Assembly (NCBI GenBank): GCA_964502525.1
Contig: CAZCXH010000002.1
Span: 28,031 to 92,030, forward strand
Direction of reading: 5' to 3'
From: an uncultured Chitinophagaceae bacterium
GTDB lineage: Bacteria; Bacteroidota; Bacteroidia; Chitinophagales; CAIOSU01
Length of the DNA stretch: 64,000 nt
The notes beneath the pieces were generated by a model. That model made no database searches and was not told where the DNA came from. It saw only the letters and a list, made by a program, of their open reading frames with translations. This document shows, piece by piece, positions 468-58,241 of this stretch. The position numbers were made by a program, and so were the translations under genes. Each line of letters opens with the position of its first letter. Within the stretch, counting starts at the first letter, position 1.

Positions 468-501
468 AGACCTGACAGGTTTTTAAAAACCTGTCAGGTC
501 T
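468..501. repeat. GACCTGACAGG palindromic element, copy 1 (just after the serA stop)
   Basis: AGACCTGACAGGTTTTT/AAAAACCTGTCAGGTCT is a perfect 34-nt palindrome. A partial extra half (CAGACCTGACGG) lies at 455-466. Confidence 0.9.
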
Positions 502-6496: not shown

Positions 6497-6588
6497 ATTT
6501 GGTTATTTGTTGATCGGTTTATTGGTTAATTGGTAATAGGTATCTGGAATTCCCAATTAACCTATTAACGAATTAACCGATAACCGAA
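6497..6588. repeat. tandem-word hairpin (GGTTAAT/ATTAACC words) between tRNA-Leu and the tig start
   Basis: The left arm CGGTTTATTGGTTAATTGGTAATAGGT is complementary, with mismatches, to the right arm CCAATTAACCTATTAACGAATTAACCGATAACCG. Confidence 0.75.
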
Positions 6589-6594
6589 TGAAAG

Positions 6595-9617: not shown

Positions 9618-9624
9618 TGCATTA

Positions 9625-9657
9625 GACCTGACAGGTTTTCGAAAAACCTGTCAGGTC
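9625..9657. repeat. GACCTGACAGG palindromic element, copy 2 (between divergent thpR and udg starts)
   Basis: GACCTGACAGGTTTT-CGA-AAAACCTGTCAGGTC has perfect 15-bp arms. Confidence 0.9.
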
Positions 9658-9674
9658 ATCAAGGTTACGAGAGT

Positions 9675-10364: not shown

Positions 10365-12029
10365 CTACCACTTGAATTTCCCGGTGAATTTTTTCGCCCC
10401 GCATGTTACCATGCAGAAATAAATTCCAGGATATGAATAGAATCCTGCATTCAACCCGTTTTGAAGAAAAGCATTTTCCTCAAACAATTTTCTTCCCGTA
10501 ATATCAAAAATTTCAATTAACGCGTTGCCCAGGACATCATCATTTGAAAACCTGATATTGACAGACCCCGTCTGCGGATCAGGGGAGATGATGATTTCAG
10601 AAGAGTTAACCTTTTCAATTCCGGAAGCAATTTCGCTTAAGCAATACCGGCTGCCGGTTTGAACCGGTTCATATTGAGGGCTTTCAATCACATCCTCTGT
10701 AACCAAAGCTGGCCGCAGGTCTGCTGCATCCGCTTCAAAGCAAACGTTGCTGAGTTTCAAATTTTTAACATGACGCGCATACAACCCTTGCGCAGGAATC
10801 GTATCACCAAATATGTCACAGTTGGGGCGATCGGTTTCGTTTTCCGGGACAATATATCCAGGGCGAACCTCCTGCTCTCCTCCGGGAAAATTGACGGTAA
10901 CATCTTCCAGCGTCACATCCTCAACATAATAACCCGGTATCCCGGTGATTGAACTTGTCAGATTGCTTTCAGCAGTGATGGTGATATTTTGAAAACTGAC
11001 ATTCCTGATATAGCCTACCGGAGGCGTTGGCGCAGCAGGCGTGTATTTTCTCCCCTGATTGCCGAGGCGAAGGAACAGCGCGGTATTCACGCCAGCCATG
11101 GTGATATTGCGGAGCGTGAGACTGTCAATGAAGCCGCCATCCACAATGGAGAGGTTCATGCCGCAATCCGCTGTGGGAATAATGCTGTGAGGCTGCACCA
11201 CGCAATCCTCAATCAGGATGTTTCTAAATCCTCCGGTCGTTTCCGTTCCTATTTTGATGGCCCGCGCAACCGTTGAAACCGTGCAGTTGCGGATAACAAC
11301 GTTCTCGCAGTTCAATGGCGTAGTGGTTTTCAACACCAACGGGTCGTCAAGCGAACTGACGGTGCAGTTTTCTATCAGCACATTGCGGCAGGCGTCAATG
11401 CCGATTCCGTCATTATTGGAATTGGAGTTGTTGGATACCGTGACATTGCGGATGGCGAGCGAATCAACATCGAGGTTGTGCATCATCCAGAAAGCGGCAT
11501 TCACAAGTTCAATGCTGTCATACATTACGTTTTGGCAAGAAATGATCCGGATACCGTAAGGGCGTTCGTTCGCTCCGAGAAATGAAAATCCGTTCCCGTC
11601 AACGGTCCCTGTGCCGGTAATGGAAATATTGTGCCGGTTTTCGGCATAGATGATTGACTTCTGCGAATTCTCATCGGCAAGGGAGCGCAGGGCGGGAATC
11701 ATATCAGGGTAATGGCTGATGTTTGTACTGCCTTTCAACGTTCCAACAACGCGAAGATTAACATTGCTTTTAAGCATAATCGTGCCGGTGACAAATGTGC
11801 CGGAAGGCACGAGCACGGTTCCACCGGCAATTGCGCATGAGTCAATGGCATCCTGGATAGCGTTGGTGTTAACCGTGCTGCCGTTGCCGATAGCGCCAAA
11901 ATCAGTGATATCCCATGTTTGGGCAAATGATAGGATTGAGCAAAGCGCGAAGCAGGCAAAAGCGGTCAGAACTCTCATCAAAAGAATTGAATCCGCTAAA
12001 AATAATGTTTTCATGGGAAGGGAAGGCAA
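10365..12029 (-). CDS. glycoside hydrolase family 28 (polygalacturonase-like, right-handed beta-helix) with T9SS C-terminal sorting domain
   Basis: ITDFGAIGNGSTVNTNAIQDAID is followed by repeated NxxIxN beta-helix turns and NNDGIGID. The C-terminal roughly 80 aa end in GIYFCMVTCGAKKFTGKFKW, which is Por_Secre_tail-like. Confidence 0.8.
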   Translation of the reverse strand: MPSLPMKTLFLADSILLMRVLTAFACFALCSILSFAQTWDITDFGAIGNGSTVNTNAIQDAIDSCAIAGGTVLVPSGTFVTGTIMLKSNVNLRVVGTLKGSTNISHYPDMIPALRSLADENSQKSIIYAENRHNISITGTGTVDGNGFSFLGANERPYGIRIISCQNVMYDSIELVNAAFWMMHNLDVDSLAIRNVTVSNNSNSNNDGIGIDACRNVLIENCTVSSLDDPLVLKTTTPLNCENVVIRNCTVSTVARAIKIGTETTGGFRNILIEDCVVQPHSIIPTADCGMNLSIVDGGFIDSLTLRNITMAGVNTALFLRLGNQGRKYTPAAPTPPVGYIRNVSFQNITITAESNLTSSITGIPGYYVEDVTLEDVTVNFPGGEQEVRPGYIVPENETDRPNCDIFGDTIPAQGLYARHVKNLKLSNVCFEADAADLRPALVTEDVIESPQYEPVQTGSRYCLSEIASGIEKVNSSEIIISPDPQTGSVNIRFSNDDVLGNALIEIFDITGRKLFEENAFLQNGLNAGFYSYPGIYFCMVTCGAKKFTGKFKW

Positions 12030-16701: not shown

Positions 16702-16768
16702 AAAAAATGCAAAAGGCAAATTTGCAAAGGGCAATCGCTTTCTTGCCTTTTGCACTTTGCCTTTTTCT
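16702..16768. repeat. tandem-word hairpin (AAAGGCAA/TTGCCTTT words) between convergent genes
   Basis: TGCAAAAGGCAAATTTGCAAAGGGCAA-TCGCTTTC-TTGCCTTTTGCACTTTGCCTTTTT. Confidence 0.8.
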
Positions 16769-18117: not shown

Positions 18118-18172
18118 ATCATCACCGAATTATCAAATTATCGAATCACCGAATCAGCAAATCACCGAATCA
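18118..18172. repeat. tandem 8-nt word array YAYCRAAT (reverse complement of ATTYGRTR), single arm, abutting the icd stop
   Basis: CACCGAAT TATCAAAT TATCGAAT CACCGAAT CAGCAAAT CACCGAAT. Confidence 0.8.
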
Positions 18173-19450
18173 CACCTCCACCAAATCCATGCTGTTGATG
18201 ACCTCCGTTCCAAACTCAGAACACTTCAGCAGCGTGGCTCCTTCCATGAGGCGATGGAAATCATAGGTAACTTTCTTGTTTGCGAAAGCCGTTTCCAGTC
18301 CTTTGATGATGAGGTCTTTCGCCTCAAGCCAGCCCATGTATTCCAGCATCATCGCGCCTGAGAGTATCACCGAACTGGGGTTCACCTTATCCTGACCGGC
18401 ATATTTGGGAGCCGTGCCGTGCGTGGCTTCAAAGATGGCAGCCCCGATTTCGTAGTTGATATTGGCGCCCGGAGCGATGCCTATTCCTCCAACTCCCGCA
18501 GCGAGCGCATCGGAGATATAATCGCCATTCAGGTTGAGCGTTGCCAGCACGGAATATTCCTGCGGTCTTAACTGAATCTGCTGCAGGAACGCATCCGCGA
18601 TGGAATCTTTAATGATCACCTTTCCTCCTTCAGTTGCCTGTTTCATCATCTTGTTCGCCTGCTCCGACCCCTTTTCCTGAACTATCTTATCATACTGTTG
18701 CCAGGTGAACACCTTGTCTCCGAATTCTTTTTCCGCCAGTTCATATCCCCATTTTTTGAAACCGCCCTCAGTGTATTTCATGATGTTGCCCTTATGCACT
18801 AATGTCAGTGAAGGTTTTTTCTGCTCAATGGCATACCTGAGGGCAGCTCTCACCAGCCGCTCAGTGCCTTCCTTTGAAACCGGCTTGATGCCGATGGATG
18901 ATGTTTTCGGGAAACGTATCTGGTTCACCCCCATTTCGTTTTGCAGGAAAGCAATGACCTTGTTCGCTTCCGGTGTGCCCGCATTCCACTCTATACCCGC
19001 GTAAATGTCCTCTGTGTTTTCACGGAACACCACCATGTCAATCCATTCCGGATGCTTCATGGGCGATGGGACGTTCGTGAAATACTGCACCGGGCGCACA
19101 CAGGCATAGAGATCAAGCTTTTGCCGCAAAGCCACATTGAGCGAACGGATGCCGCCCCCAACGGGCGTTGTCAAAGGACCTTTGATTGCGATGAGATACT
19201 TGGTGATGGCTTCCAGCGTTTCTTCCGGCAGCCAGTCGCCTTTCAGATTAAAGGCTTTCTCCCCGGCATAAACCTCCATCCATTGAATCTTTCGCTTGCC
19301 GTGATAGGCTTTCTCCACAGCGGCATCCAGCACACGCACCGATGCCGCCCAGATGTCGGGTCCGGTGCCATCGCCCTCTATAAATGGAATAACCGGGTTG
19401 TCAGGAACTTGCAACTTGCCGTTTTTGATGGTTACTTTTTCGCTAGACAT
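18170..19450 (-). CDS. icd: NADP-dependent isocitrate dehydrogenase
   Basis: [21 protein letters not shown] and NLNGDYISD motifs are present, with the 426-aa length typical of prokaryotic homodimeric IDH. Confidence 0.95.
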
Positions 19451-35759: not shown

Positions 35760-35772
35760 CTCGTTTGTATTT

Positions 35773-36027
35773 AACGTGAGTTATGGATTCAAAACTATCT
35801 CGCAACTGTCCTCATTGCCATCCGCTTTAGCGGATGGCAATGAATTTCAATAAGTTAAGTTACCCTGGTTGTTTCAAGTCTTCCGAAGGAGGACTTGGAA
35901 CATGGGATAGAGGAAGGTCTTTCGACCTTCCGGCAAGACGAAAGTCTTGCCGTTATTACGAATCACAAGTGTCCCTTCGGAACACTTGCGATAACGGGTA
36001 TCTTGTCGGTAATCCATAACTCACGTT
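35773..36027. other. 255-nt multi-hairpin element closed by a perfect 17-bp stem (candidate structured RNA / 5' leader, or nested palindromic repeats)
   Basis: AACGTGAGTTATGGATT (35773-35789) pairs perfectly with 36011-36027. Inside are five near-perfect hairpins: 35815-35840, 35875-35897, 35912-35931, 35932-35951 and 35966-35988. There is also a CCGTTAT/ATAACGG helix. Confidence 0.5.
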
Positions 36028-36034
36028 TATATTG

Positions 36035-36065
36035 AAAACTTACTATTAAAAAGTCACCCTCCAAA
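36035..36065 (-). promoter_or_regulatory. candidate promoter TTTG-N19-TAAGTTTT reading into the 255-nt structured element and the lipoprotein gene
   Basis: On the minus strand, TTTG (36065-36062) is followed by a 19-nt spacer and TAAGTTTT (36042-35). This is an imperfect -7 box ending 7 nt before the first base of the 17-bp closing stem. Confidence 0.35.
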
Positions 36066-36162
36066 TGACATTTGTCAATTTGAATTAAAGTCTGCCGGAT
36101 AACCAACCCGCCCATTCATGGCAATTACAATCCCGAGCGATGCATACAAAAAGAAAGTTTTA

Positions 36163-36220
36163 CTCCTCTCCATCCGGAATGGGTTGAGGTGAGGCGTAAA
36201 AGAGCAATTTTTAGAACTGC
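36163..36220 (+). repeat. degenerate CCTCTCC element with AATTTTTAGAACTGC tail
   Basis: CTCCTCTCCATCCGGAATGGGTTGAGGTGAGGCGTAAAAGAGCAATTTTTAGAACTGC shares its head and 15-nt tail with 49555-49601. Confidence 0.6.
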
Positions 36221-36222
36221 GC

Positions 36223-37197
36223 TTAAACAATTTCATGCACATCAATATCCGCGCATTTGAAATGCCCTTCCGGGCAGTTGCGGAAGCCATGGATGCCGCA
36301 TGGTCTGCAGGAGAGATGTTCCCGGGTTTCTGCAACCTTCGACTTGCCGGAAAGAGGCGTAAAACCAAATTCCGGAACTGTTGAACAATAAACCGCTGTC
36401 ACCGGAGCATCCACCGCTGATGCCAAATGAAGCGGGGCAGAGTCGTTCACGTAATTCATCACTGCGCTTTTCATCAGCGCTGCCGACTGCATGAGGTTGA
36501 TCTTGCCCGCAAGGCTGATGACTCTTTCTCTTGCCGATTTGCCGCGGATATATTCGCACAAAGCGGCATCGTCCTTTCCTCCGAGCAAATAAATTGCAAA
36601 GGACTTGTCAATCAGCCCGATCAATTCAATCCATTTTTCCTTTGGCAACTGCTTGGTGAACCAGATGGAGCTGGGGGCGATGCAAACAAAACTTTCATCT
36701 TTTTTCACCTGCGCGAAATCTTCCGCTGAAGGATATATTTTGGGTTTCACGAAACTGTCGTCCGTAAGATGCCTGATGAGCATGAGGTTGCGCCCGGTTT
36801 CGTGCACCGGCATTTCTTTTGAGCCGAGGATGTGTTTGACTCTTTTGCCGAAAAGGAACGACATCGGATTTTTATCGAAACCGGCTGTCTCCTTAGCGCC
36901 TGAAAAAGCCGCGAGCAACCCGGTTGAGAAAAAACGCTGCACGGTAATCACCGCATCATACTTTCTTTTTCTGATTTCTCCCAGCATCCGCAGCAGGTTG
37001 GCGGTTTTGTTTTGCGATTTATCCCAAACCAAAATCTCATGGATGTGCGGGTTGTTTGCAAGCAGGATTTCGTTTCCTTTGCGCAGCAGGAAATCAATCC
37101 TTGCCTGCGGGTAAAACGCATGAAGCTTTTCAACTAACGGTGTGGCGAGGATGACGTCACCGATAAAGGCAGTTTGGATGATGAGGAAGTTGTTCAG
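36223..37197 (-). CDS. glycosyltransferase family 9 (LPS heptosyltransferase-like)
   Basis: The frame is open to 37197 and encodes LNNFLIIQTAFIGDVILATP, the conserved GT9 N-terminus. There is no ATG/GTG/TTG before the TTG at 37032, so a CTG (37197) or other non-canonical start is implied. Confidence 0.8.
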   Translation of the reverse strand: MNNFLIIQTAFIGDVILATPLVEKLHAFYPQARIDFLLRKGNEILLANNPHIHEILVWDKSQNKTANLLRMLGEIRKRKYDAVITVQRFFSTGLLAAFSGAKETAGFDKNPMSFLFGKRVKHILGSKEMPVHETGRNLMLIRHLTDDSFVKPKIYPSAEDFAQVKKDESFVCIAPSSIWFTKQLPKEKWIELIGLIDKSFAIYLLGGKDDAALCEYIRGKSARERVISLAGKINLMQSAALMKSAVMNYVNDSAPLHLASAVDAPVTAVYCSTVPEFGFTPLSGKSKVAETREHLSCRPCGIHGFRNCPEGHFKCADIDVHEIV

Positions 37198-37347
37198 ATG
37201 TTAGATGGCGGATGTTAGATATTAGATATTAGATATTGGATATTAGATATTGGATGTTAGATGTTAGATATTGGATGTTAGATATTGGATGTTAGATATT
37301 TAGATATTGTTCGTCTAACATCTAATATCTAATATCTAAAATCTAAC
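37198..37347. repeat. 16 tandem heptamers ATRTTRG followed by an inverted arm of 4.7 CYAAYAT units
   Basis: The units are ATGTTAG/ATATTAG/ATATTGG, and 14 of 16 fit ATRTTRG. The right arm is CTAACAT CTAATAT CTAATAT CTAAAAT CTAAC. The element fills the whole murB-GT9 intergenic gap. Confidence 0.9.
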
Positions 37348-37349
37348 TT

Positions 37350-38378
37350 TCAAACCACATTCACCTCCGCAACAATCTCAATCCCGAATTTCTCTTTCAC
37401 CGAGTCTTTGATTTTCATGGCAAGATCAATCACTTCAGCGCCAGTTGCGTTGCCGTAGTTCACCAGCACCAGCGCCTGGTCTTTGTGCGAGCCGGTGTTG
37501 CCGATGCGCTTGCCCTTCCACCCACACTGCTCGATGAGCCATCCGGCCGGGATTTTTATTTTGCCGTCCTTGCCGGGATAATGCGGAACAGACGGAAATT
37601 TTTCCGCCAATGTTTTATAAACGTCCTGCGCCACCTCCGGATTTTTGAAGAAGCTGCCTGCATTGCCTATCACCTTCGGATCGGGCAGCTTGCTTGCGCG
37701 TATCGCAATCACCGCATCGCTGACGGCTTTGATGGAAATCTCTTTCACTCCCATCCTTTCCAGCGTCTCGCGGATGGCTCCGTATGAAGTGTTGAACACC
37801 GGCTTCTTGTTCAGCCGCAGCGTAACGGAAGTGATGATGTACTGATCCTTCAGCGCGCCCTTGAACACGCTTTCGCGGTAGCCGAAGCCGCAAGCCTTAC
37901 GCAGGAAAATCCGCTCCTCGCCCGTGTGGATGTTCACCGCCTGCAGGCTGTCAAACACCGATTCAAGCTCCACTCCGTAGGCACCGATGTTCTGCATGGG
38001 CGCAGCGCCCACCAGCCCCGGTATCAGCGAGAGGTTTTCGATGCCGGCATAATTATTTTTAATGCAAAACATTACCAATTCATGCCACACCTCGCCCGCG
38101 CCCGCTTTCAGCCACACGTTGCCGCCATCTTCCTTCATCACTTCGATTCCCCGCAGCGAATTTTTGATAACCAGCCCGTCAAAATCTTTGGTGAACAAAA
38201 TGTTGCTGCCGCCTCCAAGAACCAGTTTTTCATATTCATCAAGCTCAGGCGAATGGATGATCTCGCGGAGGGCGTCCATATCTTCGATTTCAGCAAACAG
38301 GGCGCACCGTGCGTCAATCCCGAAGGTGTTGCAGGATTTGAGGGAATAGTTTCTCCTGATATTTAAAGATGTTGTCAT
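37350..38378 (-). CDS. murB: UDP-N-acetylenolpyruvoylglucosamine reductase
   Basis: The FAD-binding domain (LGGGSNILF) and the C-terminal MurB domain (AGWLIEQCGWKG, HKDQALVLVN) are present. Confidence 0.95.
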   Translation of the reverse strand: MTTSLNIRRNYSLKSCNTFGIDARCALFAEIEDMDALREIIHSPELDEYEKLVLGGGSNILFTKDFDGLVIKNSLRGIEVMKEDGGNVWLKAGAGEVWHELVMFCIKNNYAGIENLSLIPGLVGAAPMQNIGAYGVELESVFDSLQAVNIHTGEERIFLRKACGFGYRESVFKGALKDQYIITSVTLRLNKKPVFNTSYGAIRETLERMGVKEISIKAVSDAVIAIRASKLPDPKVIGNAGSFFKNPEVAQDVYKTLAEKFPSVPHYPGKDGKIKIPAGWLIEQCGWKGKRIGNTGSHKDQALVLVNYGNATGAEVIDLAMKIKDSVKEKFGIEIVAEVNVV

Positions 38379-40453
38379 TCCTTGACGGTTTCGGGGTAAG
38401 CAATCCTGACGTGATAGATGCTGTTGAGCATTTTCTTGAAAATCCGCTTGATAGCGGTGATTTCCCTGAAGGTGATGTTGCTGTTCACCAACTGGTTTTC
38501 CCTGATCTTGTGTTGGATGATATTTTCCACCAGCTTGTCAATCTCCGCGCTGGACGGGCTTTTGAGGCTCCTGGCAGCGGCTTCCGTTGAATCAGCCATC
38601 ATCACAATGGCAGTCTCGCGCGAATAGGGCAGCGGACCCGGATAGCGGAAATCTTCTATATCCGCTTCCTTTTCCGGATAGTTCTTCAGAAACGATTGGT
38701 AGAAGTAATGCACTACGGTTGTCCCGTGATGCGTGCGGATAAAATCAATCAGGATATCGGGCAGTTTGTTCGCCTTAGCCATCCGCACGCCATCCTTCAC
38801 GTGGTCAATGATGATGCGCGCGCTCTCATCAAAGGTAAGCTCGTCATGCGGGTTGACGTCAGGATTTTGATTCTCGATGAAGTAATGCGGCTTGTTCATC
38901 TTGCCGATGTCGTGATACAGCGCGCCCGCCTTCACCAGCAGTGTGTTGGCTTTTATCTCGAATGCAGCCGCCTCGGCAAGGTTGGCCACCTGCAATGAAT
39001 GTTGAAACGTTCCGGGCGCTTTGATGGAAAGTTCTTTCAGCAGCGGCTTGTTGATGTCGGAAAGCTCCAGCAGCGTGATGTCGGAAACAAAGCCGAACCC
39101 TTTTTCCAGCAGCGGCACCAGGGGGTAGGCGAGCAGCAGCAGCAGCACGTTGAGCCCCAGCCACCCGAAGTTGGCGTAATCAATATCATGGAACGTGCCT
39201 TCCTGAACGATGGCAAGCGCAAAATAGCCGGTCAGGTAGGCAGCGAGTATAAAACCGTTTGATTGAAAAAACTGCGACCAATAGTAGGATCGCACGTTGG
39301 TGAGAATCGCCACCATGCCGGCAATGAACTGGAGGAAGGCAAACTGCACTCCGTTATGAACAATGAAGCTGCTCAGCAAAACCAGCGCGATATGCGCGTG
39401 AAGGGCCGTGGTGGTGCCGAAAAACGTGCGCAGGATAACCGGCACGATACATACGGGAATAGCATAAAGTATTGGCAGGTCGGTTTTCACGATCGTGCTG
39501 ATCACCACGATCATCACCGTGATGAGGAAAAAAATGAGCAGGTGCTTCCGGTTGCTGTCCCACACCTCCGGGGAAAACACCTTCAGCAAAACCGACAATA
39601 TCACCAGGACGATCAGCGACAGCAGGAAATTGCCGAGATAAATCACCTGCATCTTTTTAATGCCAAACACGTTGCCTTCATACTCCTCCTGAAACGAAAG
39701 CAGCATCTGGTATTTATCGGGTGTGATGATCGCCCCCTTGGCGATGATCATTTCCCCCTGCTGCACCTTGCCGCGCGTGAGGGAAATGTTTTCCAGCAAT
39801 TCGTTCTGAAACTTCTGAGTGGTTGCCTCATCATAAAAAACATTGTAAGCGAGCGACTGCTCAATCAGCGGAAGCAGGAATCCCATATCCGCACGGCTGG
39901 CGGCTTTCAGGCTGTCCTTCACAAATTCAAACGCCTGCTTGATGCTGAACAGTCCGCCCAACAGCCGTTTTTCAGCCACATTCTCCTCCGTCAATACGTT
40001 CAGCTCGCGCGATGGCGCAAACGACTTGTGCTCGTCAATGAGGCTGATGATGCCAACGGAAAAAATGCGGTCGAGGATGCGCGTGCCGGCTTCACGCGCC
40101 CTGGCTGAATCAATCTTCACCTGCCCCCCTACCTCCGTCAGCTTACGGTAAAAGCTTTCGCTGAATTTTTTCTGCTGCTCCTCCTTCACGCCCTCGTCAA
40201 ATTTGTAATAGGGCGAAAACCCTTCCAGCAGCCAGTCCTTCTCTTCGGTAATCTGCTGCTCTGTTTTCAGGATGCCTATGTCGAAAGGCGCTATCAGGTC
40301 GTCATACTTCCACGGCTTGCCTACCTCAAACGAATATTTGAAAATGCCTGTTTTCGGAAAAAAATAAGAGATGACCAGCGATGATGCGATAACGATGACA
40401 TACCGCAGGTAGTCCTGGTGGCGGTTGACGATGTTGACAAAAATCCTGTTCAA
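38375..40453 (-). CDS. 7TM-HD membrane phosphohydrolase (PgpH/YqfF-like, HDIG domain)
   Basis: An extracellular N-terminal domain and a 7-TM block are followed by an HD domain (HSLQVANLAE, ALYHDIGK, HHG). Confidence 0.9.
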   Translation of the reverse strand: MNRIFVNIVNRHQDYLRYVIVIASSLVISYFFPKTGIFKYSFEVGKPWKYDDLIAPFDIGILKTEQQITEEKDWLLEGFSPYYKFDEGVKEEQQKKFSESFYRKLTEVGGQVKIDSARAREAGTRILDRIFSVGIISLIDEHKSFAPSRELNVLTEENVAEKRLLGGLFSIKQAFEFVKDSLKAASRADMGFLLPLIEQSLAYNVFYDEATTQKFQNELLENISLTRGKVQQGEMIIAKGAIITPDKYQMLLSFQEEYEGNVFGIKKMQVIYLGNFLLSLIVLVILSVLLKVFSPEVWDSNRKHLLIFFLITVMIVVISTIVKTDLPILYAIPVCIVPVILRTFFGTTTALHAHIALVLLSSFIVHNGVQFAFLQFIAGMVAILTNVRSYYWSQFFQSNGFILAAYLTGYFALAIVQEGTFHDIDYANFGWLGLNVLLLLLAYPLVPLLEKGFGFVSDITLLELSDINKPLLKELSIKAPGTFQHSLQVANLAEAAAFEIKANTLLVKAGALYHDIGKMNKPHYFIENQNPDVNPHDELTFDESARIIIDHVKDGVRMAKANKLPDILIDFIRTHHGTTVVHYFYQSFLKNYPEKEADIEDFRYPGPLPYSRETAIVMMADSTEAAARSLKSPSSAEIDKLVENIIQHKIRENQLVNSNITFREITAIKRIFKKMLNSIYHVRIAYPETVKE

Positions 40454-40493: not shown

Positions 40494-40528
40494 AAGACCT
40501 GACGGGGTTTTATAACCTGTCAGGTCTT
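40494..40528. repeat. GACCTGACAGG palindromic element, copy 3 (next to the IS256 remnant)
   Basis: AAGACCTGACGGGGTTTTATAACCTGTCAGGTCTT is an imperfect copy. Confidence 0.8.
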
Positions 40529-43949: not shown

Positions 43950-44098
43950 TCAATGGTTTTGCCTTTGCTTATTGCCTTTTACCTTTTGTCCCTTGCCTAT
44001 TGCCTATTGGCCTTTTACTAATGGAATTCGGATGGTTGATTTCAATCCCTTTGCCTATTGGCCTTTTACCTTTTGCCCTTTGCCTTTTCCACTTTTTT
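43950..44098. repeat. T-rich tandem-word array (TTGCCTTT / TTGCCTAT words) with an internal 19-nt direct repeat
   Basis: TTGCCTATTGGCCTTTTAC occurs twice, flanked by TTTGCC/CTTTTGCC words. There is no inverted arm. Confidence 0.75.
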
Positions 44099-45417: not shown

Positions 45418-45497
45418 GTTCACGGTTTACACGTTTACGTTTACGGTTGCACAAGAAAATAGAACCGTAAACAAGTAAACCGTAAACGTGTAAACCC
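45418..45497. repeat. tandem-word hairpin, GTTTACR family, copy 1 (divergent promoter region)
   Basis: CACGGTTTACACGTTTACGTTTACGGTT ... AACCGTAAACAAGTAAACCGTAAACGTGTAAACCC. Confidence 0.85.
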
Positions 45498-46230: not shown

Positions 46231-46266
46231 AGCGGGTTCTTTCGACTTGCCATCCTCAAATCTACT

Positions 46267-46327
46267 TTACCGTTTACGGTTACACAATACAACAAACTGT
46301 AAACGTGTAAACCGGAAACCGTAAACT
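46267..46327. repeat. tandem-word hairpin, GTTTACR family, copy 2 (convergent gene ends)
   Basis: CCGTTTACGGTTACAC ... CTGTAAACGTGTAAACCGGAAACCGTAAAC. Confidence 0.85.
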
Positions 46328-47348: not shown

Positions 47349-47417
47349 GGTCGTTTACGGTTTACACGTTTACTGTTTACATGTTGCTAAAACCTTAAAC
47401 ATGTAAACCGTAAACCG
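47349..47417. repeat. tandem-word hairpin, GTTTACR family, copy 3 (divergent promoter region)
   Basis: CGTTTACGGTTTACACGTTTACTGTTTACATGTT ... AACATGTAAACCGTAAACCG. Confidence 0.85.
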
Positions 47418-51594: not shown

Positions 51595-51734
51595 GGGGGA
51601 AAGTTACAAAAGGGGATTTTGATTATGTCATATACTCTCATCTATTACAGAGCAGTAGCCTCCGGGTATTATTTATTTAAAGAACCAATTCGCCAGGATG
51701 AGCAGAACACTCCCCTCAGTCTTTTCCCCGGCTA

Positions 51735-51876
51735 TGGCGCAAGCGTCCGCGCTTGTGTCCATCATCCTGAAGCGTCCGCTTACCCAGCTCTGGCGCGGGC
51801 GTCCGCCCGTGTCCAGTTATTTACAAGCGTCCGCTTTTATTTGTCGCACCAGCGGGAAGCTGGCGCGAGGTGAGGG
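51735..51876 (+). repeat. 142-nt GC-rich multi-hairpin direct repeat, copy A (a further partial unit lies at 51889-51917)
   Basis: It aligns to 52572-52714 with about 6 differences, all substitutions being transitions. Confidence 0.9.
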
Positions 51877-51944
51877 GAACCCTTAAACTGGCGCAAGCGT
51901 GCGCGCTTGTGCCCATCCCTCCCTTGGGGGAGGTTGTAGGGTAA

Positions 51945-52110
51945 GTTTGAACCTTAAATCCGCAAACTATTTGAAATGACAGGTCTCCCGCTGATTTCGC
52001 TGATTCAAGCAGATGAATGTTAGAAAAGAATATTTTCTGCGGAAATCTGCGGTATCTGCAGGAAATTGATTGTTCATGGAATTTGAGTTTGCGGAATTTA
52101 GGTTGAAGCT
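51945..52110. repeat. imperfect about 32-nt inverted repeats enclosing CTGATTTCGCTGATT / CTGCGGAAATCTGCGG words
   Basis: GTTTGAACCTTAAATCCGCAAACT... pairs with ...AGTTTGCGGAATTTAGGTTGAAGC. Similar CTGCGRAAAATCAGCG words occur at 3502-3517 and 26572-26587. Confidence 0.6.
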
Positions 52111-52141
52111 AAAACCTCCGGAGTCGCGCAGAGGTTTTTTT
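52111..52141 (+). terminator. intrinsic-terminator-like hairpin with T-run
   Basis: AAAACCTC-CGGAGTCGCGCA-GAGGTTTT is followed by TTT. Confidence 0.4.
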
Positions 52142-52220
52142 GCGCATCACAAAACCGGAAGCGTTTTTGCTTGTGAAACTTTACTTCGTTGTAAGGGTTT
52201 GTTATCTTTGAAGGAAATCT

Positions 52221-52508: not shown

Positions 52509-52571
52509 ACCTTTTGTATCTTCCTGCAATCAGCCAAGGCCTGCAACTGCATATTCATCTACCCCTCAAAC

Positions 52572-52714
52572 TGGCGCAAGCGTCCGTGCTTGTGCCCATC
52601 ATCTTGAAGCGTCCGCTTACCCCAACTCTGGCGCGGGCGTCCGCCCGTGTCCAGCTATTTACAAGCGTCCGCTTTTATTTGTCGCACCAGCGGGAAGCTG
52701 GCGCGAGGTGAGGG
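52572..52714 (+). repeat. 143-nt GC-rich multi-hairpin direct repeat, copy B
   Basis: See copy A. It contains the GGCGCAAGCG-TCCG-YGCTTGTGYCC and GGCGCGGGC-GTCC-GCCCGTGTCC hairpins. Confidence 0.9.
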
Positions 52715-52840
52715 TTGAGGGGATTCTTCGCTACGCTCAGAATGACGCTTTGATTAAGCCAATAGATACCGCTGAACTTCTGGCAAGGTCGCTACCAAAC
52801 AGAGCCGCTGAAGAAACGAAGTCAGTACGCGCCAAAACCA

Positions 52841-52950
52841 ATTCGGTGATTCGGTAATTCGATGATTCGATAATGAAATACACCATCGAATTATCAAATT
52901 ATCGAATCATCACATCACCGAATCATCGAATCACCGAATTATCGAATTAC
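52841..52950. repeat. tandem-word hairpin, ATTCGRTR family (4 left units, 8 right units)
   Basis: The left arm is ATTCGGTG ATTCGGTA ATTCGATG ATTCGATA. The right arm has eight YAYCRAAT units and runs into the TACTTTTG box. Confidence 0.9.
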
Positions 52951-52955
52951 TTTTG
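52948..52955 (+). promoter_or_regulatory. -7 box TACTTTTG at the flavoprotein gene start
   Basis: Exact TAnnTTTG match. It overlaps the TTG at 52953, so the real start may be the GTG at 52962. Confidence 0.4.
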
Positions 52956-57259: not shown

Positions 57260-58168
57260 CCCACCATGCATCAGGTGAATCTTCAGGCTGCGCAAAGCTT
57301 TTTCCATTCCGTTCTGTCTCGCAATTCCACCGGAGATTCGCTAACATGGTTGACGGAAAAGATAAATAGGTCTGGAAAGAAATTTTCAGAAAAGGATTTT
57401 TACCTCACCTTCAGCCTGCTCCCGCGCTATTTCAGCAAAGACCAGTTGAAATTCTCTGAAGAGCCTGAGAAGACCGGGGCGCAAATAAGGCAGGGCTTTA
57501 ACCCTTCGGACTTCACCATTGCACAGACAGCAAGAGTGTTGCTTCTGCTGATGATTCCAACGGAGGATGAAAATCTCTTTTTAAAAATCCTGAATAATCT
57601 TTTCACCACAGCGGAAGTAAATGAGCTGGTTGCGCTTTATTCAGCGCTTCCGCTTTTATCTTATCCTGAATCGCTGAAGTCCCGGACGGCTGAAGGCATA
57701 AGAAGCAACATGGCGGTAGTGTTCGATGCCGTTGCTTTAAACAATCCTTATCCGGCAGATTTTTTGGATGATGACGCCTTCAACCAGATGGTGTTGAAAG
57801 CCGTATTCATCGAGCGCTCATTGGACAAAATTTATAAGCTCGATTCAAGAGCCAATAAAGATCTCGCGCGCATGTTGTCTGATTATGCCCACGAGCGTTG
57901 GGCGGCATCGCGTTATGTGACACCGGAATTATGGCGACCGATCGGTCCCTTTATTGATGACAGCTTGCTGAAAGACATTGAACGCCTGCTTGAACAAGGA
58001 AGCGAACTCGATAAACAGGCGGCTGCGTTAGCCGTTCAAAGCAGTAAATCGCTGAAAGCAGCAGAATTGGTTCCTGAGCCTTTAAAATTAAAAGCAGAAA
58101 AAAAAGAATTTGACTGGCACAGTATTTCCAAGAAATGGTTCGCTGAAAGGAATGCGGTGATTCGGTGA
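57257..58168 (+). CDS. eboA: EboA-like protein (ebo cluster gene 1)
   Basis: The position, size and motifs (EGIRSNMAVVFDAVALNNPYP, NQMVLKAVF, LSDYAHERWAA) fit what I remember of EboA. The likely start is the ATG at 57266. Confidence 0.7.
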   Translation: MPTMHQVNLQAAQSFFHSVLSRNSTGDSLTWLTEKINRSGKKFSEKDFYLTFSLLPRYFSKDQLKFSEEPEKTGAQIRQGFNPSDFTIAQTARVLLLLMIPTEDENLFLKILNNLFTTAEVNELVALYSALPLLSYPESLKSRTAEGIRSNMAVVFDAVALNNPYPADFLDDDAFNQMVLKAVFIERSLDKIYKLDSRANKDLARMLSDYAHERWAASRYVTPELWRPIGPFIDDSLLKDIERLLEQGSELDKQAAALAVQSSKSLKAAELVPEPLKLKAEKKEFDWHSISKKWFAERNAVIR

Positions 58169-58241
58169 TTTGATAATTATCAATAAATACAAAACTCCAT
58201 TTCCATTATCGAATCATCAAATTATCGAATTATCGAATTAC
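58154..58241. repeat. tandem-word hairpin, ATTCGRTR family, between eboA and eboB
   Basis: The left arm GCGGTGATTCGGTGATTTGATAATTATC covers the last eboA codons and the stop. The right arm is TTATCGAATCATCAAATTATCGAATTATCGAATTAC. Confidence 0.85.

Follow-up and report, generated by a model that had tools for sequence, protein, structure and literature searches.

Inverted heptamer arrays fill the junction between murB and a family 9 glycosyltransferase gene in an uncultured Chitinophagaceae bacterium

The G-rich heptamer repeats that Rehm et al. (2015) described in Xanthomonas (GGGAATC) and Nostoc (GGGGAYT) are mostly intergenic, and their G-rich strand is the coding strand downstream of stop codons and the non-coding strand upstream of start codons (PMC4692102). 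In Xanthomonas, 70–75 pairs of such heptamers per genome are arranged as convergent inverted pairs and could form stem-loops, while the repeats of both genera show extensive variation in length and sequence between close relatives (PMC4692102). The element considered here lies in a 64,000-nucleotide stretch of DNA, called the window throughout, from an uncultured Chitinophagaceae bacterium of the phylum Bacteroidota (assembly GCA_964502525.1, contig CAZCXH010000002.1, positions 28,031 to 92,030 of the forward strand), where a 152-nt insertion built of heptamers exactly fills the gap between the murB stop codon and the start of a family 9 glycosyltransferase gene (GT9). Like the Xanthomonas and Nostoc repeats, it combines 7-nt intergenic units, a polarity set by stop and start codons, a convergent inverted pair and rapid variation, and all four features are seen both for the element and for the class of arrays to which it belongs. 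Unlike them, it consists of AT-rich units without any GGG run, which makes a G-quadruplex impossible; of the features that mark the earlier repeats, the convergent pair and the polarity were found and the quadruplex tracts were not. It also differs in its phylum, in having 16 units where Xanthomonas usually has four, in a 3:1 asymmetry of its arms, and in the coexistence of many different unit sequences in one Bacteroidota genome. The architecture is already known; what is new is the phylum, along with AT-rich units unable to form quadruplexes. Our favoured account, to which we give somewhat better than even chances, is that of a slippage-born simple-sequence-repeat hairpin inside a murB–GT9 operon.

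Other described repeats share some of these properties. As relayed in later papers (PMC4679880, PMC4060949), Mrazek, Guo and Shah (2007) found heptamers to be the most abundant long simple-sequence repeats and proposed polymerase slippage. The present element is likewise an intergenic tandem repeat of the 5–11-nt unit class, whereas hairpin pairing of two arrays and gene-relative polarity do not figure in that work as relayed there. A closer match in position is the TAACTGA direct repeat reported by MacGregor (2015) from Beggiatoaceae, cyanobacteria and five Bacteroidetes, which lies in forward orientation, ends 0–1 nt before the start codon and supplies a stop in every frame; long arrays occur in Gramella and Aequorivita, and strains differ by insertions and deletions in 7-nt steps (PMC4679880). 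Here too the array ends at 37198 against a start codon at 37197, and TAA recurs in every frame, but the unit is AYATCYA / ATCTAAC, an inverted arm is present, and no unit dominates the genome. In Haemophilus influenzae, 7-bp repeats upstream of hmw1A and hmw2A grade expression by unit number, and the structure of the 5′ untranslated region matters (PMC8262952, PMC12721329). The murB–GT9 element likewise places 7-nt units in the 5′ leader of a gene for a surface structure; the hmw repeats, however, are perfect and demonstrably polymorphic, whereas the units here are heterogeneous and their class is not confined to surface genes. As a stable intergenic hairpin in a transcribed spacer, the element also recalls intrinsic terminators and the palindromes known as repetitive extragenic palindromes (REPs) and bacterial interspersed mosaic elements (BIMEs), but it has no U tract, its stem is not GC-rich, and it carries no dispersed conserved sequence. 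The short tandemly repeated repetitive (STRR) heptamers of cyanobacteria, finally, form tandem families dispersed in intergenic regions and are defined by specific heptamers. These repeats, which are mentioned in PMC4692102, come from a different phylum, and their defining heptamers are not present in the element.

On the plus strand, the long arm (37198–37310) is a head-to-tail series of 15 heptamers and one 8-mer, 16 units in all. Units 1 to 8 read ATGTTAG, ATGGCGG, ATGTTAG, ATATTAG, ATATTAG, ATATTGG, ATATTAG and ATATTGG, and units 9 to 16 read ATGTTAG, ATGTTAG, ATATTGG, ATGTTAG, ATATTGG, ATGTTAG, ATATTTAG and ATATTGT. Thirteen of the 16 fit ATRTTRG exactly, the exceptions being ATGGCGG, ATATTTAG and the terminal ATATTGT. 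A loop of only 4 nt (TCGT, 37311–37314) leads into an inverted arm of 4.7 units (CTAACAT, CTAATAT, CTAATAT, CTAAAAT, CTAAC) at 37315–37347, beyond which stand TT and then TCA, the murB TGA stop (37350–37352). An earlier note, made by reading these letters, had described the 16 units, the short loop, the 4.7 inverted units and the filling of the whole gap between the two reading frames, all of which direct reading bore out; its count of 14 exact units, however, has to be lowered by one, as it had passed over the terminal ATATTGT. With Tandem Repeats Finder (TRF), the array has a period of 7 and 13.9 copies and the inverted arm a further 4.7 copies; periods of 14 and 21 appear at a higher order. 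The window contains 14 two-unit matches to ATRTTRG where shuffling predicts 0.28, and every one lies inside the element; none of 100 shuffles reached that number, which places the array among the long simple sequence repeats (unit 1–11 nt). Its short-period signal is by far the strongest among the 38 intergenic gaps of the window.

Both genes are encoded on the minus strand, and on the mRNA strand the short arm comes first. It is rich in G and U (GUUAGAU...; G 18%, C 0%), and its distance from the murB stop is 2 nt by direct reading and 3 nt by the TRF array coordinates. The long arm, with the unit AYATCYA on this strand, contains G 1%, C 26%, A 42% and U 31% over 112 nt, and it abuts the GT9 start codon without a spacer. 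Around both arms extends an imperfect inverted repeat (37180–37367) with 54-nt arms that are 72% complementary, in which 37180–37233 pairs with 37314–37367. This larger repeat reaches into the last murB and the first GT9 codons and sets the murB UGA opposite the GT9 CUG. We are highly confident in identifying the element as a long heptamer simple-sequence repeat arranged as a convergent inverted pair, with a G/T-rich arm first and an A/C-rich arm second on whichever strand it is read.

The GT9 start itself is non-canonical. murB (37350–38378, minus strand) encodes a UDP-N-acetylenolpyruvoylglucosamine reductase of 342 amino acids with FAD_binding_4 and MurB_C domains, and its TGA stop lies at 37352–37350; a 7TM-HD receptor gene lies upstream of the murB–GT9 pair. 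GT9 (36223–37197, minus strand) encodes a heptosyltransferase-like protein of 324 codons counted from a CTG at 37197–37195. That CTG is the first codon of the frame, is preceded in frame by TAA-CAT, and is followed by no ATG, GTG or TTG before codon 56. Four relatives (loci L161, L162, L164 and L171, numbered as in the survey below) carry TTG at the homologous position: the window's CTG AAC AAC TTC corresponds to TTG ACC AAA TTC in L161, TTG AAT AAA ATT in L162, TTG AAG AAA ATC in L164 and TTG AAC AAA TTC in L171. Measured from CTG or TTG, the gene is 975 nt long in the window, L161 and L162 alike, and its first 55 codons have ratios of nonsynonymous to synonymous differences (pN/pS) of 0.13 and 0.09, indicating purifying selection. 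Together, the low ratios, the homologous TTG codons and the equal lengths show that the N-terminus is translated and fix the position of the start. In the source record, the GT9 product (P0002) begins at an internal Met and is only 254 amino acids long, without 70 conserved N-terminal residues, which is likely an annotation error caused by the non-canonical CTG start. The two genes are co-directional and, in relatives, overlap or stand 7–29 nt apart. This spacing points to an operon, whose bicistronic mRNA would necessarily include the element, as the earlier note had said of a read-through transcript.

The murB–GT9 element does not stand alone. At least nine other intergenic arrays of 7–8-nt units occur in the window; most have an inverted arm, and the G/T-rich arm invariably precedes the other. 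They comprise an array of the GGTTAATT type (6499–6589), the ATTCGRTR family at three loci (18121–18173, 52841–52949 and 58155–58240), the TTGCCTW family at two (43959–44095 and 16743–16765), and the GTTTACR family in three consecutive gaps around aat and holA (45420–45496, 46260–46327 and 47352–47417). The gaps in question are co-directional, convergent and divergent, and they lie beside housekeeping genes (tig, icd, aat, holA). Dozens more arrays were found in 163 other Bacteroidota loci, surveyed with TRF for intergenic arrays of at least 3.5 copies (n = 69 in 1.45 Mb, including the window). Their periods peak sharply at 7 (27 of 69) and 8 (25 of 69), and their density in the window is about four times that of the other loci surveyed. 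The same architecture recurs directly 3′ of murB at several loci; in L075, for example, TCGGTTG ×3.9 is followed by about 10 units of CNGACAA. In L112 (3682–4004), an array of 191 nt with 24 eight-mers (ATYAGCAC / ATTATCAC) ends at the murB ATG, and some 100 nt upstream of it lies a G/T-rich arm complementary to it.

Unit families also recur across distant genomes. The GCACATYA family is found at L052, L112, L161 and L171, in the last two of these 5′ of GT9, and unrelated loci share 10 exact unit pairs, against 3.6 for letter-shuffled units. Such recurrence might suggest that the arrays bind a protein, are mobile, or are artefacts, and CspB is noted to bind at one protein per heptamer (PMC4679880). 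Taken jointly, these explanations appear very improbable. Within the window the ATRTTRG family is confined to the element, its dimers occurring nowhere else in the 64 kb; among the surveyed loci, one unrelated locus (L009) shares a heptamer with it. No terminal repeats or target duplications are present, as would be expected of a mobile element, a REP or a miniature inverted-repeat transposable element (MITE), and an origin of that type was rejected. Moreover, the array ends merge into the local sequence and the last unit holds the start codon, which argues for birth on the spot. No candidate binding protein was identified, and the occurrence of arrays of the same class in isolate genomes (L015, L020, L031 and L059) speaks against an artefact.

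The class is also consistent in its orientation. Polarity was measured on the sense strand of the nearest gene for arrays no more than 40 nt from a start or stop codon. C exceeds G in 19 of 20 arrays upstream of starts (mean G−C of −0.18), and G exceeds C in 20 of 22 arrays downstream of stops (mean +0.14). In array-free flanks the G−C skew is −0.044 before starts and −0.002 after stops, and the arrays exceed this background at both sites (p = 0.013 for starts and 4e-5 for stops), which rules out base composition as the cause. Nor can the rule be put down to an open reading frame (ORF)-calling bias against G-rich arrays near starts, since over-extended ORFs took in no more than one or two arrays. 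The hairpins are strictly handed too. In all 18 hairpin-type arrays the G-rich arm is the 5′ one, and an independent inverted-repeat finder gave G-first to C-first counts of 25:4 for array hairpins, as against 61:68 for the remaining intergenic hairpins and 29:29 for those in genes. The murB–GT9 element obeys both rules, with a G/U-rich, C-free arm after the stop and a G-poor arm before the start. Polarity and chirality this strict imply that either selection or a directional mechanism is at work.

Comparison of the junction among relatives shows how quickly it changes. Scans of genome and metagenome contigs yielded MurB identities of 63% at most, and exact-protein look-ups with MurB and the annotated GT9 gave no match; the closer relatives were drawn from a protein database, and their contigs were then fetched. 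The same-species contigs L163 and L168 (1.5–1.7 kb) end short of the junction, and the arrays are compared here between species. At 77% MurB identity (L164 and L165) the genes are separated by 7 nt or overlap by 11 nt, and at 75% (L162) they are 29 nt apart, in each case with no repeat. At 88% (L171), a 91-nt gap holds a hairpin of GCACATYA units (−40.9 kcal/mol, z = −4.9), in which a G/T arm (TTTAATGTGCTGATGTG...) after the murB stop pairs with GCACATTA GCACATCA ACTCATTA GCACATTG, and the TTG start lies within the last repeat unit. At 94% (L161 and L169), AAAGTTT ×4.5 is followed by a GC-rich spacer and by GCACATCA ×4.5 ending in the TTG start; these arms are not complementary, and the fold is unremarkable (z = −0.3). 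Absence at 75–77% identity together with different arrays at 88–94% is the pattern of a slipping repeat and not of a conserved regulatory RNA. The window's AYATCYA units nevertheless share with the L161 and L171 arrays both a core (ACATC/ACATT) and the junction ...ACAT(C)TG AAC AA. From these sequences, the simplest history would be that an array was born once at the start codon, in an ancestor shared by the window, L161 and L171, and that unit turnover (GCACATYA 8-mers in the relatives, AYATCYA 7-mers here) and gain or loss of the inverted arm came later. On the same comparison, the murB–GT9 junction evolves fast.

Rapid turnover directly 5′ of a surface-glycan gene raises the idea of a contingency locus, in which gain and loss of heptamers would switch or grade a lipopolysaccharide-core glycosyltransferase by phase variation, much as at hmw1A (PMC8262952, PMC12721329). 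The wholly different repeats of close relatives would suit such a role, and it is suggestive, though only that, that the contig of a sister population from a second sample (L170) breaks off inside its 8-mer array. We regard this explanation as decidedly improbable. The units are imperfect, with three types plus variants, and such imperfection lowers slippage; the class, moreover, also lies beside housekeeping genes (tig, icd, holA and murB among them) and is evidently not aimed at surface genes.

The predicted structure of the element is a stable one. The murB-sense RNA folds at −41 kcal/mol (z = −6.1), and the gap by itself reaches z = −9.6, the strongest value among the window's 38 intergenic gaps. 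Short and long arms can pair in at least seven registers at 83–91% complementarity, in keeping with the many alternative registers that the earlier note had foreseen. In the minimum-energy fold, the short arm pairs with the start-proximal units and leaves a loop of about 66 nt. An intrinsic terminator was nonetheless rejected, given that a terminator scan of 37198–37349 came back empty, no U tract follows any register, and the stem is not GC-rich. A promoter of GT9's own was likewise rejected. Matches resembling σ70 promoters inside the repeat occur at the level of shuffles, and the Bacteroidetes −7 box (TAnnTTTG; PMC6847099) is absent from the sense strand between 36000 and 38800, with a match at 38837 and nothing within 1.6 kb upstream of GT9; the two-part Bacteroidetes promoter consensus is absent from the whole window. 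Against Rfam 15, only a tRNA-Leu rose above the gathering threshold in the window, and in the region 36900–37700 nothing came up but matches below threshold, to generic microRNA hairpins of plants and animals. The element has no coding potential, with stops in all frames of both strands.

Transcription attenuation between murB and GT9 could take one of two forms, with the hairpin as a terminator or the G-free, C-containing arm of about 80–110 nt as a loading site for Rho, which would then terminate transcription in early GT9 whenever the weak CUG start is unengaged. Sites of Rho utilisation are expected to be C-rich, G-poor and unstructured over some 70–80 nt or more. The long arm has a composition of this kind throughout its 112 nt, and about 66 nt are left unpaired in the minimum-energy fold. 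The stability of the hairpin and the weakness of the GT9 initiation region also fit, and with the G-rich arm first, the C-rich arm would be exposed later. We consider attenuation improbable all the same, both for the lack of a U tract and the empty scan noted above and for the distribution of the class, which also occurs in divergent promoter regions (45420–45496 and 47352–47417) and inside ORFs, where termination would be harmful.

Translation offers a more plausible point of action. The GT9 initiation region has C, U, G and C at −3, −6, −12 and −13, positions at which A is a positive determinant of initiation in Flavobacterium johnsoniae, where secondary structure lowers initiation (PMC6847099). 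Judged by these rules, with a CUG start, none of the four A residues and partial base-pairing, the region would be a weak one. In silico, the free RNA has the GT9 start codon paired at 0.75 and the region from −20 to +5 at 0.65; a ribosome footprint on the murB stop moves the short arm to distal units and brings the latter value to 0.20.

Our favoured account of a slippage-born hairpin can be set out as follows. The array would have grown in the murB–GT9 junction by slipped-strand mispairing, and the second arm probably came from fold-back or template switching. Transcribed as part of a bicistronic murB–GT9 mRNA, the element would form a multi-register hairpin whose base brings the murB stop, 2 nt from the 5′ arm, beside the GT9 start, at which the 3′ arm ends. 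In this way the 152-nt insertion would be folded away, and stop and start would remain adjacent. With a weak initiation region, GT9 would continue to rely on ribosomes that terminate at murB; the excess units, free of G, would form an unstructured loop or leader, and gain or loss of units would shift the pairing registers and could tune GT9 output. That the hairpin, besides folding the spacer away, modestly damps GT9 translation and couples it to murB is a tentative proposal resting on these models, and one we put at somewhat under even chances. Because it keeps the stop beside the start, the element would be largely tolerated; any damping of GT9 translation would be modest at most and tunable through copy number, and no dedicated regulatory role is necessary to account for its existence. 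An effect on GT9 expression is plausible and, if real, is likelier to be translational than to involve 3′-end formation.

Several observations weigh against this account. The units are heterogeneous and the longest perfect run is 2 × 14 nt, so present slippage rates may be low. In L161, GT9 is intact although arm complementarity has been lost, which implies that the hairpin is dispensable. Shuffling the short arm in silico still leaves the start region masked at 0.53, against 0.65 before; the array itself, then, contributes little, and in the models most of the masking would come about because the 3′ end of murB and the 5′ end of GT9 happen to be complementary. Arrays are enriched in neither co-directional nor convergent gaps, array hairpins are not enriched in co-directional ones, and gap types are used according to their availability, which leaves a role dedicated to coupling or termination unsupported for the class. 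Finally, we infer co-transcription, folding and coupling alike in this organism. For related reasons we found nothing to support 3′-end formation in the element or the suggestion, made in the earlier note, that the element is a device setting the murB:GT9 expression ratio: it has neither a U tract nor an Rfam family, it is absent or replaced in relatives, its class spreads over the genome and the phylum in gaps of all types, and the short-arm shuffle changes little.

Some of these same facts would suit a neutral by-product, that is, slippage debris without measurable effect, with selection merely filtering the strand polarity that is tolerated beside stops and starts. Absent or different arrays in relatives, spread over all gap types in proportion to availability, a hairpin lost in L161 while GT9 was kept, and masking barely altered by the shuffle are all as this explanation would have it. 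Against it stand the persistence of an array at this junction across lineages 6–12% apart in MurB and the strict polarity and chirality of the class, which demand selection or a directional mechanism. Nor are 150 nt of structured RNA likely to be silent directly beside a start codon as weak and non-canonical as this one. On balance, pure neutrality seems unlikely to us, if a good deal less so than attenuation or phase variation.

Several further repeats came to light in the course of this work. At the unrelated locus L009, from a distant metagenome-assembled Bacteroidota genome, ATATTGG ×4 (10443–10470) lies inside a lysA-like (diaminopimelate decarboxylase) ORF, apparently as an in-frame insertion within a variable loop. 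Many other Bacteroidota carry a G-free tandem array of heptamers within the coding sequence of murB, always just 5′ of the conserved LILGGGSN motif and encoding a variable low-complexity linker (e.g. QPQTSNLKPQTTNHKPQT). Such arrays occur at L080 4480–4532, L060 6110–6143, L131 1333–1363, L112 4124–4152, L090 4109–4146, L032 2955–2986, L033 6126–6158 and L126 556–583; the window's murB has no internal heptamer array. In the window, the 463-nt gap 3′ of GT9 (35760–36222) contains several perfect GC-rich hairpins (−158 kcal/mol, z = −8.0), with no Rfam match and no called ORF. A REP-like, near-perfect palindrome (AGACCTGACAGGTTTT...AAAACCTGTCAGGTCT) is found at three intergenic sites of the window (468–501, 9624–9658 and 40495–40527), its half-sites matching 6 times against 0.03 expected. 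Finally, a GC-rich repeat of about 145 nt occurs twice (51735–51876 and 52572–52714; 94–98% identical) with internal GCGTCCGC hairpins, in non-coding stretches at 51595–52220 (fold z = −7.6) and 52509–52952 (z = −5.2) that have no Rfam match.

For the organism, these results mean that a glycosyltransferase of the lipopolysaccharide-core type starts at a CTG directly behind a 150-nt repeat, a start that leads automatic annotation to cut 70 residues off the protein. Modelling of its initiation region suggests that GT9 expression probably depends on translation of murB. More generally, in metagenome-assembled Bacteroidota genomes such arrays break up short-read assemblies and lead start-codon calls astray. 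The polarity rules known from Xanthomonas and Nostoc also hold for AT-rich, non-quadruplex units in a third phylum, and, holding as they do without any capacity for quadruplexes, they point to constraints of transcription or translation, or to a directional mutational mechanism, and not to quadruplex biology.

The point of wider interest is the cause of the G-first rule in array hairpins. Bacteroidota ribosomes ignore Shine-Dalgarno sequences. It is conceivable, although we regard it as a long shot, that hairpins of G-first tandem units are a selected device that holds stop and start together for termination-reinitiation in organisms of this kind, with the sliding registers and the G-free leader setting the frequency of downstream initiation. 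Such a leader may be likened to the G-poor, repeat-containing omega leader of tobacco mosaic virus. If this were true, the gain and loss of units would constitute a general, evolvable dial for operon stoichiometry.

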